From a virus (taxonomy: Duplodnaviria; Caudoviricetes): a stretch of DNA of 64,000 nt. The notes beneath the pieces were generated by a model. It was not told the DNA's origin, did not search any database, and worked only from the letters and a program-made list of their open reading frames with translations. Of this stretch, positions 39,764 through 48,928 are shown piece by piece; positions within the stretch are counted from its first letter, which is position 1, and the number at the start of each line of letters is the position of its first letter. A program made the position numbers and the translations under genes. Location of the stretch: the IMG/VR virus record IMGVR_UViG_3300020365_000001, one strand, 5' to 3'.

Positions 39764-40346
39764 TTAGTTCGGTGATTACCTGGTGCTTGTATTTTTCCTT
39801 GTCGATATTTAGGAAGGGTAGGTACTTGCGAATTTTCATACCGATAGTATGCCAGACAGGATCATCTAGTTTCTTATCATAATCTTTGCAGTATCCAAAC
39901 AGTTGTTCATAGATAACTGCCTCTTCAATACTAAGATTACCTGCTAGATATTCTTTGAGTAGTGGTGGGTGTCCATCCTTTGGTTCAAGGAATACTTGCA
40001 GACCATACTGCTCCATCATATTTTTGTTCGTACCTTTGAAGTTGTAGAACAAACTTTGTTGGCGGCGCTGCCATTCTTTGAAGACACCTTCACCACTACG
40101 GATGATGTTACCAATCCACATACCTGATGGGTTGTCAGTGCTGATGAAGTTAGCAAGGAAGAAGTTCCTGATGTCCTCATCTTTATACTTCCTTGAGGTC
40201 TTCTCAAAAAAGTATCTGTCCTTCCTCTTGTAGAAAGAGTCAAGACTTGCTCTAGACTTACCAGCATACCTAAAGTAATCATACTTCTCCTTAGAGAAGT
40301 GATTTTTGTACGCCAGATACTCCTTGTAAGTATCAAACGGTGTCAT
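39747..40346 (-). CDS. gp59: Helicase loader gp59
   Basis: YLAYKNHF..YDYFRY..FYKRKDRYFFEK. Confidence 0.9.
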   Translation of the reverse strand: MTPFDTYKEYLAYKNHFSKEKYDYFRYAGKSRASLDSFYKRKDRYFFEKTSRKYKDEDIRNFFLANFISTDNPSGMWIGNIIRSGEGVFKEWQRRQQSLFYNFKGTNKNMMEQYGLQVFLEPKDGHPPLLKEYLAGNLSIEEAVIYEQLFGYCKDYDKKLDDPVWHTIGMKIRKYLPFLNIDKEKYKHQVITELNDQFF

Positions 40347-41409
40347 AGGTTGCTTCATCATGCATAGCGACGTTCTTTTTCAATTTCGCATCCAACTGTT
40401 TAGTTGCCGTGAACCATACAGGGTTGCGAGGACACATGGAACAGATCCAATGTGGTTTTGTTACCTCATCAAAGGATTGTTGAATCTCTTCTTGGGATGA
40501 GTGTATGCTAGTGGGTTTGTAGGCCAAATACTTCTGCCATTCTGGATCGTCCATCTGATTGGTTGCATCAAGGGACTCTCTCAGGTAGGAGATCATGGGA
40601 CACTTCCAAAGGTGACCGTTATACAGTTGACTGTTCGGGCACGTACAATGAGTGAAACTTTCCTCAGGATCTCCCTCCTCAAAGGGATAGTATTTGATCT
40701 GGTCATCTTTGATATCGTACTTGACAATATCAAACCACTGTCTAGGTTTTCCATCAAGCAGACGGAATGCCTCACTAAATTCTAACAGGTTTTCTGTGTC
40801 AGCGCCACGTTCTTTACAATATCTTATGAATTTTGCTGCGTTCTCCCAGTTTACCGATCCCTGCTTGGTATACCAGGGTTTGTGAAAGGTTACTCGGAAG
40901 TTCACACCCTTCAGCATTTCATCAACGATCCACTCCTTCTCCTGTAAGAGGCGTGAACCGTTGCTAAACAGTTTTATGTTACAGGTCTGCCCAGTTGCTT
41001 CTGCGACCTCTCTGGTGACCTTTACGACCTCTCTCGTGCGGGGTTCTAGTAAAGGTTCGCCACCGATGATACTAATATGACTCCAGACATATACTTTTGG
41101 CAGAAAAGATTTGATGTCATCTATCAACGCATCGATGTCAACACCACTCTTTACACCAAGAAGACTGCTGTTGTGATTACATGCACGACAGGCGAGATTG
41201 CACCCGTTGATAACATGAATACTCAGCAGTCTTGTGGTAGGTCTCTCCGCTTCCAGAGATGCTATCTCTTCAGGAGTAACCTGCTTGAAGTTAGAAATCC
41301 AGAATCCTCTTTGCTCTCTCACATAGTCAACGCTTTTACTAACCTCCAACAATCTTTCTTCCGAAAGATGTTTACACATTTTAGCAAGCGTCCACTCTTT
41401 GAGTTGCAT
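40333..41409 (-). CDS. Radical SAM protein (paralog A)
   Basis: CNLACRAC, GGEPLL, SNG; auxiliary CTCPN...WKCP...CSMC. Confidence 0.9.
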   Translation of the reverse strand: MQLKEWTLAKMCKHLSEERLLEVSKSVDYVREQRGFWISNFKQVTPEEIASLEAERPTTRLLSIHVINGCNLACRACNHNSSLLGVKSGVDIDALIDDIKSFLPKVYVWSHISIIGGEPLLEPRTREVVKVTREVAEATGQTCNIKLFSNGSRLLQEKEWIVDEMLKGVNFRVTFHKPWYTKQGSVNWENAAKFIRYCKERGADTENLLEFSEAFRLLDGKPRQWFDIVKYDIKDDQIKYYPFEEGDPEESFTHCTCPNSQLYNGHLWKCPMISYLRESLDATNQMDDPEWQKYLAYKPTSIHSSQEEIQQSFDEVTKPHWICSMCPRNPVWFTATKQLDAKLKKNVAMHDEATYDTV

Positions 41410-43094: not shown

Positions 43095-43345
43095 TAGGCG
43101 TGTGTGGTTTTCTGGGGTTTGACTTTGGATCCGGGAACTTGTGCGACTTTAGACAGAACTTCGTTCCATCCACCATCTGTTCTGCTATAGACATCGCCAC
43201 ACCCACTAACGGCTGATGCGACGCCTTTAGACCAGTCTTTGTCCCAACCAGGATTGTCTTTCTTCCACTGATCATACTCAGCGACAGTCATGGACAATTC
43301 CTTTGTCTCACCAGTTTCTAAATTTTTTACAGGATAAATGGGCAT
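43094..43345 (-). CDS. Conserved T4-like cyanophage protein (FmdB-like)
   Basis: MPIYPVKN..TGE..WKKDNP..GWNEVLSKV..PGS; usual position beside phoH. Confidence 0.75.
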   Translation of the reverse strand: MPIYPVKNLETGETKELSMTVAEYDQWKKDNPGWDKDWSKGVASAVSGCGDVYSRTDGGWNEVLSKVAQVPGSKVKPQKTTHA

Positions 43346-44136
43346 TAGGTTGTAATTGCCTTGCGTTTGGTTTTCTCTTGCAGTGCGGCACTGAACTTGA
43401 GTGGTCTAGCAGTACACATATTGCATACGCTTTCTGGAATTTTACTATTATTACAGAAATTTGTCAATTCATTGTCAGTGCAGTCAACTGGTAGTCCATC
43501 GACGAGATACTCTTGCCAATCTCTATCATCAGATTGTTCAGTCACATACAATAGTTCTTTTAGGAATGCCGTGTTAGGACACTTCCATAACTTACCATTG
43601 TATAGTTGTGTATTAGGACAGGAACATGCTTTGAAACTCTTATCAGGTTTGCCATGGTTGTAAGGATGTACCTTACCACCACTCTTCCTGATTGAGTTGA
43701 ACCAACGGTCCTTGCCAGTGTGATGTTCAGTTACAAGCACCTTAGGGTGATTGAATTTCTTGATCACATCTTCAACTAGATCAACATGGATACTGATTCT
43801 TAGATAAACCCGTGGGTTTTCTAAGCTTTCTTTGATCCACGCTTCATTCTGTAGGAGCAATAGACCATTGCTGTAGAGATAGACAGGAGAATTAGAGTGT
43901 GTTGTACATGCATCGAGGATCTCTTTGCAACGGGGATTCAATAGCGGTTCTCCACCAATGATAGAGATCCGATTTACATCTAACCGTGGAAGTATTGTAG
44001 CAATGTCTTGGAGTAATTGATCCGTATCTATTCTACTGCTAGGAGCAAAATAATTACTGAAATGATTACAACCTTTACACTGCAAGTTACATCCTATTGA
44101 AGCACTTACATCTAAGATGTCAAGTTTTGGTTTCAT
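43345..44136 (-). CDS. Radical SAM protein (paralog B)
   Basis: CNLQCKGC, GGEPLL, SNG; CSCPN...WKCP...CNMC. Confidence 0.9.
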   Translation of the reverse strand: MKPKLDILDVSASIGCNLQCKGCNHFSNYFAPSSRIDTDQLLQDIATILPRLDVNRISIIGGEPLLNPRCKEILDACTTHSNSPVYLYSNGLLLLQNEAWIKESLENPRVYLRISIHVDLVEDVIKKFNHPKVLVTEHHTGKDRWFNSIRKSGGKVHPYNHGKPDKSFKACSCPNTQLYNGKLWKCPNTAFLKELLYVTEQSDDRDWQEYLVDGLPVDCTDNELTNFCNNSKIPESVCNMCTARPLKFSAALQEKTKRKAITT

Positions 44137-44935
44137 AGTATGCTAGATACGCTGCTCCAATAGCGGTGCCTCCATCATGAGCAATGGGTTCCACATATAG
44201 ATTTATATGAGGGAACTTCTTCTTCATTTTGTAATTGGCAACACAGTTTAGAAAACACCCACCAGAAACTACTACATTATCTGATGTCCGCATCTCCAAA
44301 AGTTCTTCGTATCGTTGCTCCCACTGTAGTTGTGTGCTGAATGCAGGTTCATCATTGTATGCACTCATACCCATAACTTTACCAGCATCTCGGTGATCCC
44401 ACCCATAGACCAGAGCAGTCTCCTCAAACTGACGCCCACAACCTATACTATCCGGACCAAAGATCCTCTTGTGAGTGGTAGTAAAATTAGGTGCAGAGAA
44501 TATAGATTCTATCTCAAGTCCTTCGCTGGTCTTAGAACCATTGGAGTCCACTACAATACAGGATGCCTTACGAAACCCTGAGTTGTAGTATGCACAGGCA
44601 GCATGAGTCAGGTGATGATGCTTTCTATAATCATGGATCTTTGCATCAGGAAATTGTTTCTTGAACTTCATCAGGTCTTTGATGTTGTCCACCTTCTTAT
44701 TGCCACGCACCCAATGAGAGTCTGCTAATGCAATGTGACTTGCCTGTGGTAAGTATTTGATCAGGGTCTTGACCCGATGATCCCATTTCTTTCGCGTAAG
44801 TCTTTCTGCTTCCAGGTAAAATATTAGCTTGCCCTCATACAATGCACAGATAGATCCATTGTTAGATAGGTTGACCCCTATGACCAAATTTTTGCCGGAG
44901 TTTTTTTTCCGGTTCTCGGGAAATGAAAAGTTCAT
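44120..44935 (-). CDS. Carbamoyltransferase N-terminal (Kae1-like) domain, copy 2
   Basis: EAERLTRKK, HHLTHAACAYY, GKVMGMSAY, SGGCFLNCVAN, DGGTAIGAA. Confidence 0.88.
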   Translation of the reverse strand: MNFSFPENRKKNSGKNLVIGVNLSNNGSICALYEGKLIFYLEAERLTRKKWDHRVKTLIKYLPQASHIALADSHWVRGNKKVDNIKDLMKFKKQFPDAKIHDYRKHHHLTHAACAYYNSGFRKASCIVVDSNGSKTSEGLEIESIFSAPNFTTTHKRIFGPDSIGCGRQFEETALVYGWDHRDAGKVMGMSAYNDEPAFSTQLQWEQRYEELLEMRTSDNVVVSGGCFLNCVANYKMKKKFPHINLYVEPIAHDGGTAIGAAYLAYYETKT

Positions 44936-44938
44936 TTT
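44895..44938. repeat. 44-bp A/T-tract element, copy 2
   Basis: 35/44 identity to 37291-37334; supplies the start codon region of 44120-44935. Confidence 0.7.
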
Positions 44939-45528
44939 GAAATGAGTCGCCCGATCTCAGGGAAATAAAGATAAGGTATCTCTGACCCATGGAAGGTTTC
45001 CATTGCATCCTCAGGTGACTCGACTAGAGGTTGACCTGCTAGGTTGAATGAAGTATTGAATAGCATAGGCACACCGGTACTCTTATGGAATGCCTGAATT
45101 AGATCGTAGTAGTGACGATTCTGCCGACCAGTTACCGTCTGGATGCGACAGGTCTTGTCTACGTGCAGCACACCTGGTATCTTATCCCATTGATGAGGCC
45201 AACAGTCCATGGCATACATCATGTGCGGAGACTCCTTCAGTCCTGCCATGTCAAACCAATCGTTTGCATGCTCAAGCATCACACTTGCAGCAAAGGGTCT
45301 GAAATGTTCCCGCTTCTTTATCGTATTGATCTTTGCCTTGGCGTTAGGGTCACGTGGATCATAGAGTAATGATCTGTTGCCAAGTGCACGTGGTCCTGCC
45401 TCAGACCTACCCTGAAAGATTGCAACAGGGTTCTGATTCATCAGCAGGTCTACAACATCTTGCAGACTTACTTCATCACCCTTGATGTGGTTCAGAGTAT
45501 AAACAGGTCCCAAATAGAGTGTCTTCAT
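44932..45528 (-). CDS. Carbamoyltransferase C-terminal (YrdC-like) domain
   Basis: GRSEAGPRALGNRS, KKREHFRPFA, HVDKTCRIQTV, NTSFNLAGQPLVE. Confidence 0.92.
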   Translation of the reverse strand: MKTLYLGPVYTLNHIKGDEVSLQDVVDLLMNQNPVAIFQGRSEAGPRALGNRSLLYDPRDPNAKAKINTIKKREHFRPFAASVMLEHANDWFDMAGLKESPHMMYAMDCWPHQWDKIPGVLHVDKTCRIQTVTGRQNRHYYDLIQAFHKSTGVPMLFNTSFNLAGQPLVESPEDAMETFHGSEIPYLYFPEIGRLISK

Positions 45529-46504
45529 GATGTTCTAGTAACGCTGAACCAATGGAGAGACCTCCATCATAAGAAAGAGGATCGACATAAAGATTTATGT
45601 CTAGTTCTTTCATGATTTTGTAGTTAGCAACACAGTTGAGGAAAAATCCTCCACTAACTACGACGTTTGTTTTTCCGGTTGCAGTGACTGCTTTCTGAAT
45701 GATGCGTAGAGCATGTTGTTCAGCAGATATCTGTAACCGATGTGCCAATTCTATTTTAGTACATTCTGGACCGGTGTATGCGGTACTGTGTGCTTCTGCA
45801 TACAACTCCTTGCTGCATACACTATGGTTGTACTCGACGTTGAATAGATCAGGTTCCTGTTTGGTCTCACAGTATGGTGCCAGACCCATAGTCTTACCTG
45901 CCTCTCGTTCATCAAACCCACAGAAGCGTGACACCCTACGGTACGCTTGACCCACACTGGTGCGGTCACTATAGAAATGATTACCCTCCCAGTAGGGTTC
46001 CTTCAGTTTTGCACACTCATCTTCACTCCAGAAAGTTGAGTAGTGTTTGAAGACAGGAATGAATCCTTGCTTGTCATGCACAAAGATACTCTCAACCTCA
46101 CAGAAGTTCAGTCCATCTTTGACTACATTGGATCCCTTCCCATCCATCACCACACATACAGCATCATCAAACCCTGAGTTGTAAAAAGCACTGGCAGCAT
46201 GACACTCATGATGCCTAGTGCGGTAGTCTACGATGGGGATGCCTAGATCCTTTACAATTCTAGTCAGATTATTTTTCTGCTTGAGTCGTAGGATAAACTT
46301 CTCTGGATAGTATCTGGTATAGCAGTCACAGATAGTAACCTTGTCAATGCTAGAGTCCAGATACTTTTTTGCTACTTGAATAGCAGATCGATCACGTTTG
46401 ATCTTACTCAGTCTTTCTTCTTCCAGATAGAAGAGAACCTCACCGTCTTCTACGATAGCAAGTGATCCATTGTGTGATAAATTTATTCCACAGATTCTTG
46501 CCAT
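45476..46504 (-). CDS. Carbamoyltransferase N-terminal (Kae1-like) domain, copy 1
   Basis: EEERLSKIK, HHECHAASAFY, VMDGKG, GKTMGLAPY, SGGFFLNCVAN, DGGLSIG. Confidence 0.9.
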   Translation of the reverse strand: MARICGINLSHNGSLAIVEDGEVLFYLEEERLSKIKRDRSAIQVAKKYLDSSIDKVTICDCYTRYYPEKFILRLKQKNNLTRIVKDLGIPIVDYRTRHHECHAASAFYNSGFDDAVCVVMDGKGSNVVKDGLNFCEVESIFVHDKQGFIPVFKHYSTFWSEDECAKLKEPYWEGNHFYSDRTSVGQAYRRVSRFCGFDEREAGKTMGLAPYCETKQEPDLFNVEYNHSVCSKELYAEAHSTAYTGPECTKIELAHRLQISAEQHALRIIQKAVTATGKTNVVVSGGFFLNCVANYKIMKELDINLYVDPLSYDGGLSIGSALLEHHEDTLFGTCLYSEPHQG

Positions 46505-47163
46505 TCCAATGCTTCACTCACCGATGGATACTGTTCAATGAAGATCTCCTTACATGCTTCGGCAACCTCCATGTGTTCTTTCTGTGTGCCGTTGGCAGTT
46601 CTCAAATTGATGTAGTGGATCCACGACCTACATGAACCTGTCATGTAGATTCTGGTGGGCGTGCATAATGGGAGCACATTTCTTGCACACTCCTTTGCCA
46701 CACCACGCTCAAGCATCTGTTGATACAGTGCCATGGAAGAATCAAACAGAGTTTGCATCTGCAACTCTAGATTCTGGACTACGAATGGATCAAGATCATC
46801 AATAGAATTCTGACGATTCTTGTCATCCTGACGACGCAGTTCAGGAATAGGAATAGAATCTCTCAGCAGACTAGAGTCTGCATAGCGTTGTGAAAACTCT
46901 TGGAAAGTAAAACTACGATGCCTCAGTATTTGAGCTGCGATAGCACGGGTAGTATTGATTTCCAGAGTCATAGTGGATTGCTCAAACACAGACCAGTGGT
47001 TGTGCTTGATACAGTAGCGGAGCAACCCAGCATACTTTTCGTTCTCTTGATTAGAAGGGTTGCTCACGCGAGCAATGTACGCCATCATCTGCTCAGCGTC
47101 AGGCGTATTGCTTACCAGTTTTACAGTTGGTTTCATAGATCTTCGTACTGCCAGCGGCGTCAT
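46483..47163 (-). CDS. thyX: Flavin-dependent thymidylate synthase
   Basis: RHRSFTFQEFSQRY ThyX motif; alternative start at 47136. Confidence 0.97.
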   Translation of the reverse strand: MTPLAVRRSMKPTVKLVSNTPDAEQMMAYIARVSNPSNQENEKYAGLLRYCIKHNHWSVFEQSTMTLEINTTRAIAAQILRHRSFTFQEFSQRYADSSLLRDSIPIPELRRQDDKNRQNSIDDLDPFVVQNLELQMQTLFDSSMALYQQMLERGVAKECARNVLPLCTPTRIYMTGSCRSWIHYINLRTANGTQKEHMEVAEACKEIFIEQYPSVSEALEWQESVE

Positions 47164-47791: not shown

Positions 47792-47819
47792 ATTATACCA
47801 CACTATGTATGTCTGTCAA
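47792..47819 (-). promoter_or_regulatory. Consensus sigma70 promoter for the riboswitch leader
   Basis: TTGACA-16 nt-TATAAT with extended -10 TG; the aptamer begins about 8 nt downstream. Confidence 0.85.
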
Positions 47820-48928
47820 CTTCTACACCGCTTAGTACCACAGTAGTCTGCACAGATATGGGGTTTCTTATCCCATGAATCCACTAGAGTATGCTGGAAG
47901 AAAGGAGTCTGCAATACTTCTTCCAGACTGTGGTGCTGTAAGCATATAGATTTGATACCACCCTGGTTTTCGATCAGTGGTATAACATTATCCCAGAATA
48001 CTTTCTGCATATACTCAGCACCCACACCTTTGTTTGGGTTCTTGATGTCCCTGAACTCTGCGGGAGCATCGATGTCATCATGGACATAGAACTGTGGGTA
48101 GAAGAACCTTAGACGTGACTGGTGGAAGCAGCAGGCATGAACCACACCCCGACTATCAATCCTCAGTTGTCCTGGTTTACCACGCTGGTGTTTATATCTA
48201 CAGTCAACAGGACTGTCATCAGCAACAGGATTGTTTTTGAATACGTGAGCAGGATCAGAAACTACTTCTAGTTTTCTGACTGTGCCTTTGTATTCGTAAG
48301 TGAACGTACCATCTCCCTTACCACTAGCATCATACATATCATTGACCTTCGTGTGTTGAAAGTCTTTGAACTTCATCAACCTACTGAGTGTTCTGCAACG
48401 TTTAGTCTGATGCTCATTGTGTTTGAAGACTAGCATCCTCCACACAGCAGGTCCACCAGCGGCAATGAATGCTCTAGCACTACTGATTACTTTGTTGTAG
48501 TCTACACCTACCCTATACTGTTGTATGGTATCTTCTAACCCATCGATAGAGAAGATAAGAAAAGAATCTTTATGCGATGCTCCCATGAGGGCACCAAGTT
48601 TACCCCAAAACTCTTGGTCTCGGGTGCCTCCATTAGTACTCATCTGGAAAATGATATTCCTATTCACATTCAGAGTGTAGGAATATATTTCTAGCAGGTC
48701 CTCACACAATGTTGGTTCACCAAAAGACCCTTGGAAGTACATCATCTCTGTCTTCCTAAGGGTCTCTGGTGGGAACCACTCCTTCCACTGCTCAATGCTA
48801 ATGGAAGAACGATTCATTGATGGGTCCGGTTTCAACACCGCTACCTCATCGTTATAAGATGTCTTGTGCCTGGCACACAGAGGACACTTGGAGTTACAAT
48901 GATCAGTTAGATCAATGAGAAACTTCAC
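47816..48928 (-). CDS. Radical SAM protein with SPASM/twitch-like C-terminus
   Basis: CNSKCPLC, GEP, TNGG, FSIDGL; C..IDSRGVVHACC..CADYC. Confidence 0.9.
   Translation of the reverse strand: MKFLIDLTDHCNSKCPLCARHKTSYNDEVAVLKPDPSMNRSSISIEQWKEWFPPETLRKTEMMYFQGSFGEPTLCEDLLEIYSYTLNVNRNIIFQMSTNGGTRDQEFWGKLGALMGASHKDSFLIFSIDGLEDTIQQYRVGVDYNKVISSARAFIAAGGPAVWRMLVFKHNEHQTKRCRTLSRLMKFKDFQHTKVNDMYDASGKGDGTFTYEYKGTVRKLEVVSDPAHVFKNNPVADDSPVDCRYKHQRGKPGQLRIDSRGVVHACCFHQSRLRFFYPQFYVHDDIDAPAEFRDIKNPNKGVGAEYMQKVFWDNVIPLIENQGGIKSICLQHHSLEEVLQTPFFQHTLVDSWDKKPHICADYCGTKRCRS

Follow-up and report, generated by a model that had tools for sequence, protein, structure and literature searches.

A cyanophage class III carbamoyltransferase in three genes: one carbamoyl-adenylate-forming subunit probably serving two diverged transfer subunits, beside a radical SAM gene

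Class III carbamoyltransferases are two-domain enzymes, in which the unstable carbamoyl-AMP intermediate is thought to pass through an internal chamber. The DNA analysed here, a stretch of 64,000 nucleotides (nt) from the IMG/VR virus record IMGVR_UViG_3300020365_000001 (hereafter the window), derives from a T4-like cyanomyophage whose nearest named relatives are S-RIM44, Sf-CH3 and syn9. It carries an enzyme of this class (TobZ/NodU/CmcH type) in separate pieces, namely a predicted carbamoyl-AMP-forming subunit (C) and two transfer subunits (N1 and N2), followed by the gene of a radical S-adenosylmethionine enzyme (rSAM). Probably, one carbamoyl-AMP generator serves both transfer subunits. 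On the minus strand and without gaps, the genes follow in the order thyX, N1, C, N2, rSAM, an 83-amino-acid (aa) gene (p83) and phoH; the features of the cassette and its upstream neighbour are as follows.

46483-47163, minus strand: thyX, flavin-dependent thymidylate synthase (Pfam Thy1, 5.6e-49)
45476-46504, minus strand: N1, Kae1-like transfer subunit, 342 aa (Pfam Carbam_trans_N, 3.7e-22)
45476-45528, minus strand: N1/C overlap of 53 nt, with the C ATG inside the N1 3' end in the +1 frame
44932-45528, minus strand: C, YrdC-like carbamoyl-AMP-forming subunit, 198 aa (Pfam Carbam_trans_C, 4.4e-60)
44120-44935, minus strand: N2, compact Kae1-like subunit, 271 aa (Pfam Carbam_trans_N, 2.3e-18)
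43345-44136, minus strand: rSAM, twitch-type radical SAM enzyme, 263 aa (Pfam Radical_SAM, 2.5e-10)

The initial annotation had described N1, C, N2 and rSAM as lying downstream of thyX and all overlapping, which the open reading frames (ORFs) and Pfam matches bear out: the overlaps measure 22 nt (thyX/N1), 53 nt (N1/C), 4 nt (C/N2), 17 nt (N2/rSAM) and 1 nt (rSAM/p83). No terminator-like site was seen inside the gene block, and terminator-like and promoter-like sites, as consensus matches only, lie just upstream of thyX. The thyX-phoH pair is a conserved backbone across cyanomyophages, while the content between these two genes varies. Thus, thyX is judged to be a core gene that marks an insertion hotspot and to stand outside the carbamoyltransferase pathway.

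Both N proteins keep the HHxxH motif, the metal Asp and the DGG motif and end soon after the latter, as had been reported from the first inspection of the sequence. In N1 the motifs are H98-H99-x-x-H102, D121 and D313-G-G, and the protein ends 27 aa past DGG; in N2 they are H107-H108-x-x-H111, D130 and D254-G-G, with the end 15 aa past DGG. The metal ligands of N1 (H98, H102, D121 and D313) are invariant in the alignment, and those of N2 (H107, H111, D130 and D254) are strictly kept together with its nucleotide-binding motifs. His11 of N1 (46472-46474) is the counterpart of the catalytic-base residues H14 of TobZ and H27 of GdmN, and the sequence matches of N1 in the PDB are NovN, GdmN and TobZ. 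C starts with the interdomain linker motif LYLGPxY, reaches 202.6 bits with Carbam_trans_C (cut-off 27) and has the family motifs invariant in its alignment; its PDB matches are VtdB (6.3e-38, aligned to VtdB residues 413-589), then GdmN and TobZ.

IMG/VR was scanned with C, rSAM, N1, N2 and one fused relative, and ORFs were classed by BLAST against the window proteins. The cassette was found on more than 50 distinct viral contigs, and every variant sits between thyX and the 83-aa gene/phoH. The variants form a natural series.

Variant 1: fused N1-C (530-aa ORF), N2 (283 aa) and rSAM; L260-L276, 16 contigs, one of 172 kb
Variant 2: N1, C, N2 and rSAM as separate genes, the window type; 11 distinct cassettes
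Variant 3: N1 separated from C-N2-rSAM by a Pyr_excise-like gene, in many cases together with a PsbN-like one (both named from Pfam); 12 distinct cassettes
Variant 4: C-N2-rSAM without N1; AG-345-D19 type, L110-L113, L116, L118 and L306
Variant 5: C-N2 alone; L049
Variant 6: N1-C-N2 without rSAM; L142, L148 and L168
Variant 7: fused N1-C alone; L267
Variant 8: a sulfotransferase-like gene in the N1 slot, then C-N2-rSAM; L302 and L303

C is the sole piece present in all of these variants. Wherever an N1-clade gene is followed by enough contig DNA, C comes next or is fused to it. The representative of the fused form, P0112, is 52% identical to N1 and 66% identical to C and keeps the C Met at the joint. 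A tree of C and N2 calls for at least two changes in whether N1 is present, and for at least four in the case of rSAM. The genes inserted between N1 and C (L105:1737-2234 and L105:2377-2613; also in L103-L109, L126 and L152-L164) encode a Pyr_excise-like protein (pyrimidine dimer glycosylase) and a small PsbN-like membrane protein. In L114:727-2600, neither thyX nor N1 was detected between a homologue of p149 and the Pyr_excise-like gene that precedes C-N2-rSAM; therefore, the thyX side of the hotspot also appears to be variable.

The strongest support for a shared activating subunit comes from two of these arrangements. Since N1 is fused to C in a sister lineage, the gene arrangement shows N1 as a predicted working partner of C; since C-N2 cassettes exist without N1, in at least two lineages, it likewise shows N2 as one. 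Both pairings had been proposed for the window, and both stand, the former also with a controlled structural model that docks N1 on C. The N1+C complex reached an interface score (ipSAE) of 0.93 in three runs, against 0.00 for the best of three controls. Of 80 solved complexes, 58 reach the mark applied, and of 110 mismatched pairs, 2 do. Contact agreement between runs was at least 93% and the predicted local distance difference test (pLDDT) of the partners at least 87. Residues 1-8 of C, its N-terminal linker, are modelled as pairing with hairpin 22-28 of N1, and the interface resembles the interdomain packing of fused class III enzymes. Of the 38 modelled interface positions, N2 shares the N1 residue at 25, compared with 73 of 218 positions elsewhere, with no gaps. 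The docking supports binding, although the pass may rest on likeness to solved fused homologues.

The pieces had been taken for deliberate modules rather than products of decay, a view that is strengthened by selection and by recurrence of the split across lineages and in independent DNA runs. Against the relative L007, the ratio of nonsynonymous to synonymous substitution rates (dN/dS) is 0.078 for N1, 0.127 for C, 0.106 for N2 and 0.124 for rSAM, in a range comparable to that of the neighbours thyX (0.089) and phoH (0.053). By this measure, all four cassette genes appear to be under purifying selection, with none decaying; relaxed selection on N2 was not found, and N2 is present in relatives. 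DNA contigs of two further studies (runs X15 and X17) contain positions 43300-46600 with one substitution and zero insertions or deletions (indels), and the exact 3.3-kb stretch (43300-46600) is found in 17 DNA runs of six studies from 2014-2021, one of them labelled as an air metagenome. The recurrence of this exact 3.3-kb sequence points to a widespread, very conserved phage genotype. Contigs from RNA libraries (X18 and X20) include parts of rSAM, N2 and N1 only; as such libraries may contain DNA, these contigs were left out as evidence of expression, and no meaning attaches to their gaps.

N2 differs from N1 in a feature that the first reading had missed: Asn25 (44861-44863) stands at the catalytic-base position. 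Within the N2 clade this position holds Asn in 22 of 24 sequences, Glu in 2 of 24 and never His; in the wider N1 clade, 7 of 19 sequences have His, the window N1 included, and the other 12 have Lys. Elsewhere among the viral N domains examined the residue is His, the one exception being the distant pair L063/L064, where the alignment is ambiguous. A profile search over 1.84 billion representatives recovered the N2 clade as three clusters at 437-340 bits, after which the next match drops to 228 bits. The best 150 matches were inspected for the base residue: His is found in 142, those with Asn or Glu make up the N2 clade, and the only one with Lys is a fused N1-C. Of the 150, 102 are stand-alone N domains. 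Further, the DGxGS loop has become DSNGS in N2, and about 40 residues are missing from the insertion that matches the acceptor-binding loops of GdmN. The N2 model (pLDDT 87.8) is a compact Kae1-like domain with TobZ as its best fold match (query-normalised template modelling score, TMq, 0.72). At its start (44880-44935, minus strand), N2 has a short basic extension of consensus MTFxxxxxGKKxxAK over an A8 run, which is conserved as protein in most N2 genes and absent in L110, L116, L117, L131, L162 and L049.

The radical SAM enzyme has its CxxxCxxC motif at C16/C20/C23, and C171, C186, C238 and C241 are further invariant Cys in its alignment. Its model (pLDDT 88.6) finds SpeY (7WZV) as the best PDB fold (E 2.4e-11, TMq 0.65), and BtrN (4M7T) also matches in Foldseek (TMq 0.54); these enzymes share with it a compact radical SAM core and a C-terminal Cys-rich auxiliary-cluster domain. 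Thus, rSAM has the features of a twitch dehydrogenase (CxxxCxxC, the C-terminal auxiliary-cluster Cys set and the matching fold), but identity to SpeY and BtrN is only about 20%, none of the curated family models reaches its cut-off and the likeness is one of fold only. A Protein Atlas search with rSAM returned generic radical SAM clusters only. In every viral contig found with rSAM and upstream DNA, the gene lies directly downstream of N2, whereas no carbamoyltransferase was found within 6 kb of its cellular relatives (80 loci, mostly Pirellulaceae, 25-33% identity). The coupling to a radical SAM enzyme that had been suggested for the window therefore holds in part: on gene neighbourhoods it appears to be frequent and phage-specific, but not obligatory, with at least four changes on the tree.

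On either side of the region lies another twitch-like radical SAM gene, at 40333-41409 and at 47816-48928 (both minus strand). The former encodes a 358-aa paralogue of the cassette rSAM, as the same cellular relatives match both; among the loci seen, it is present in all that have N1 and absent from four N1-less loci, which may reflect relatedness. Elsewhere, at L039:3762-6422, a radical SAM gene of 290 aa, 28% identical to that of the window, comes directly after the gene of a fused carbamoyltransferase of 595 aa. Glycine-rich and tail-assembly-chaperone-like genes precede this pair, and a tryptophan halogenase gene is nearby. Contig L180 (PAQA01000006.1), binned in a Rhodospirillaceae metagenome-assembled genome (MAG), holds a cyanophage phoH, an exonuclease gene 77% identical to that of the window, a C-like domain and a p358-like rSAM; it is probably of phage origin and was placed in a bacterial MAG by a binning error.

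The cassette has the same Kae1-like (HxxxH/D/D) and YrdC-like modules as TobZ (3VEN), GdmN (7VYJ), NovN (9S2T), VtdB (7XB6) and NodU/CmcH. In the known class III enzymes, one N domain and one C domain share a polypeptide, whereas in the window the two domains lie in different polypeptides, encoded by three ORFs in different frames with two N per C. Relative to these enzymes, N2 lacks the general-base His (His11 in N1, Asn25 in N2, Lys in many N1 relatives) and part of the acceptor-binding insertion, and the cassette is without a GdmN-type dimerisation domain. A free YrdC-like enzyme, a separate Kae1-like consumer and a degenerate paralogue alongside are also seen in the synthesis of N6-threonylcarbamoyladenosine (t6A) in tRNA, in which TsaC/Sua5 makes an acyl-adenylate that is consumed by the separate TsaD/Kae1, and TsaB is a degenerate Kae1 paralogue. 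Unlike that system, C belongs to Carbam_trans_C rather than to Sua5/YrdC proper (Pfam Sua5_yciO_yrdC 22.5 against a cut-off of 25.1), the TsaD family model is far from its cut-off (NCBIfam gcp_kae1 16.8 bits against 207.8), and N2 keeps the metal site.

Among named phages, the "Nol-like carbamoyltransferase" pairs of S-RIM44 (NC_047734) and Sf-CH3 (PV340851) occupy the same thyX...phoH locus, belong to the same family and have a C gene followed by an N gene. They differ in having one His-type N per C and no rSAM; they carry the linker at the end of N, whereas the cassette carries it at the start of C, and their N domains form a separate clade. A literature search found no paper on split phage carbamoyltransferases or on a carbamoyltransferase-rSAM pair.

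When other viral N domains serve to root the tree, N1 and N2 come out as sister clades (support of 98 in the Shimodaira-Hasegawa-like approximate likelihood ratio test, SH-aLRT, with a long-branch caveat), and within N1 the fused lineage branches as sister to all of the split forms. Since the usual state of the family is N fused to C, the simplest history would start from an ancestral fused N1-C, whose N half was duplicated downstream (N2) before a linker indel split the gene; in this region the window has 7 nt where fused relatives have 21 nt. On this simplest account, the N1|C split was then followed by insertions or by loss of N1 in relatives. An unrelated phage group (L038, L040 and L062) has its own N-C-N set (N of 329 aa, C of 201 aa and N of 391 aa), in which both N genes keep the His base and the linker remains on the upstream N. 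Because these two N genes are each other's closest relatives (SH-aLRT 99-100), the N-C-N layout appears to have arisen at least twice.

Several other explanations of the locus have to be weighed. That N1 and C are truly one protein, divided by a sequencing frameshift or joined by a programmed +1 frameshift so that the split is an artefact or recent decay, would agree with their fusion in the sister lineage and with the +1 frame of C in a 53-nt overlap, but is very improbable. The frames are identical in the contigs of independent studies, where N1 and C are not seen as a single frame, and are conserved in lineages with saturated synonymous sites (dS 0.6 to above 3). In the C frame, a TAG lies three codons upstream of the C ATG (TAG-NNNNNN-ATG), and the same junction is present in the relatives L007 and L011, whose N1 proteins are 91% and 62% identical to that of the window. 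The N1 tail past the C ATG has 17, 18 and 8 residues in the window, L007 and L011; because its length differs among relatives, the last 17 residues of N1 seem to behave as an overprinted, unselected tail over the C start. Programmed frameshifting in particular was rejected, as the overlap varies from 26 to 56 nt without a common slippery site, and at least 13 distinct cassettes have other genes, 0.5-1 kb in all, between N1 and C; moreover, N1 and C are each under purifying selection. More credible, though still unlikely, is a catalytically silent N2 that would act as a scaffold or regulator, stabilising or gating C as TsaB does beside TsaD, with N1 (or another enzyme where N1 is absent) as the only real transferase. 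The replacement of the general-base His throughout the N2 clade, the loss of part of the acceptor-binding insertion and the altered DSNGS loop agree with it, as does the inactivity of GdmN H27N (PMC9633730); TobZ H14N was crystallised with bound carbamoyl adenylate intermediate (title of PDB entry 3VEX). Nevertheless, the four metal ligands and the nucleotide-binding motifs that N2 strictly keeps would be needless in a pure scaffold, C-N2 persists without N1, the dN/dS of N2 is low, and Glu-His at the site in two N2 sub-lineages suggests a maintained, altered catalytic site. Between an altered-chemistry transferase and a silent partner, altered chemistry is thus favoured on the predicted metal site, selection and persistence without N1.

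The nature of the acceptor divides the remaining alternatives. The cassette might hypermodify phage DNA, carbamoylating 5-hydroxymethyl-pyrimidines with rSAM acting as in thymidine hypermodification, and it does adjoin thyX among genes of nucleotide metabolism and replication. The MetaGPA study describes a phage carbamoyltransferase that acts on DNA containing 5-hydroxymethylcytosine (5hmC) (Yang et al. 2021, eLife, PMC8670742), and radical SAM enzymes are reported in thymidine hypermodification pathways (PMC8989533). Residues that MetaGPA lists as differential (TobZ W408, G421 and R423) were set aside here, as the paper text does not assign them to a phenotype. The 5hmC enzyme resembles the cassette in being phage-encoded, with the same Pfam pair, near a thymidylate-synthase-type gene. 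It is, however, a fused protein of 63 kDa found together with a dCMP hydroxymethylase of the ThyA family, whereas the cassette is split and its neighbour ThyX is a core cyanomyophage gene; the ThyA-type hydroxymethylase family (PF00303) has no match in G003, G001 and G004, although control genomes do match, and G003 (192 kb, CheckV 100%) is a complete relative that carries the cassette. Tet_JBP (PF12851) also gave no match in G001 and G003, but none in the control genomes either, so that this negative carries no weight. The thyX-phoH backbone also has variable inserts (Pyr_excise-like, PsbN-like and sulfotransferase-like), and the fold of rSAM is closest to sugar/aminocyclitol dehydrogenases. 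The analogy to 5hmC drawn in the initial annotation is therefore weak, and DNA modification is rather improbable. Cyanophage papers label these genes as pyrimidine-synthesis helpers (PMC9146016), a label that the family assignment does not appear to support, because the predicted proteins are of TobZ/NodU type and not aspartate/ornithine carbamoyltransferases.

A sugar-like acceptor is likelier than DNA, given the complete relative without a ThyA-type hydroxymethylase. By analogy, a hydroxyl-rich, sugar-like acceptor is weakly suggested by the closest solved relatives of both enzyme types, which tailor sugars or aminocyclitols, and by the sulfotransferase-like gene in the N1 slot of one lineage. 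This gene (L302:2338-3168, plus strand; likewise in L303) encodes a 276-aa ORF that matches Sulfotransfer_1 clusters with an Atlas feature score of 0.97 and a structural template modelling (TM) score of 0.84. In another lineage an SGNH-like ORF may fill the rSAM slot, which is a weak pointer in the same direction: at L148:6812-7441 (plus strand), likewise in L142, a 209-aa ORF in place of rSAM has a GDSL/SGNH-like N-terminal motif by eye, and with Pfam Lipase_GDSL at E 0.067 only, it is a lead and no more.

Taken together, a class III carbamoyltransferase taken apart into a hub subunit C and two diverged transfer subunits is the reading that we consider somewhat better than even. C would make carbamoyl-AMP from carbamoyl phosphate and ATP, and the paralogous Kae1-like N1 and N2 would use it. 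The two might dock alternately on one face of C, or they might take up carbamoyl-AMP that C has set free, in the way that TsaD takes up what TsaC makes. N1 would have been the first partner of C, with a hydroxyl as the probable target of its O-carbamoylation, while the trimmed N2, with Asn for the general base and a more open acceptor site, probably serves another nucleophile or position. The rSAM, of the SpeY/BtrN-like alcohol dehydrogenase type, probably tailors the same sugar-like acceptor. Gene structure, conservation, selection, motif states, the series of fusions, splits and losses and the N1+C model are what the analysis shows; that C is shared, that N2 is catalytically competent, that the acceptor is sugar-like and what rSAM does are inferred. 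The proposal that one generator serves two acceptor-specific subunits thus fares unevenly: C is probably shared by two transfer subunits, because it is the only constant across the variants and pairs with N1 and N2, whereas acceptor specificity is a prediction and N2 carries the His-to-Asn change that inactivates GdmN.

Several observations weigh against this reading of a shared hub. The fused lineage tethers C to N1, so that N2 docking needs open domains or a diffusing intermediate, and with Asn at its base position N2 may not transfer to a hydroxyl. The pass of the N1+C model may derive from the solved structures of TobZ, GdmN and VtdB, and some of the interface positions kept in N2 fall in nucleotide-binding motifs, whose conservation has other causes. 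For the sugar reading, the basis is a likeness of fold (20% identity) together with a single gene swap, and the Pfam sulfotransferase match in the swapped gene reaches only E 0.05. Furthermore, the nearest relatives have a second, self-sufficient fused carbamoyltransferase of 460-461 aa, an alternative source of carbamoyl-AMP. It is 27% identical to N1 and 42% to C and lies at L086:1501-2886 (minus strand) in G001 and at 8.3-9.7 kb in G003, two genes from the gp25 baseplate gene; by these assignments, the genome of the nearest relatives would hold three N and two C domains in total.

A wider and more tentative possibility, which we hold to be less probable than the shared hub itself, is that the cassette belongs to a phage pathway that tailors a sugar-like metabolite or glycan during infection. 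N2 would then transfer without a His base, for example to an amine or to a group created by the SpeY-like rSAM, and sister phages would swap the N1 step for sulfation. If true, this would be a viral counterpart of Nod-factor-style decoration (NodU/NodH).

Abundant ocean phages thus provide a natural series in which one enzyme is fused, split, separated by other genes and partly deleted. The hand-over of an intermediate between proteins, the evolution of acceptor specificity after duplication and the working of a transfer domain without the general-base His are testable now. As the exact sequence recurs in marine metagenomes of six studies, infected Synechococcus or Prochlorococcus probably make the product of the cassette on a large scale.

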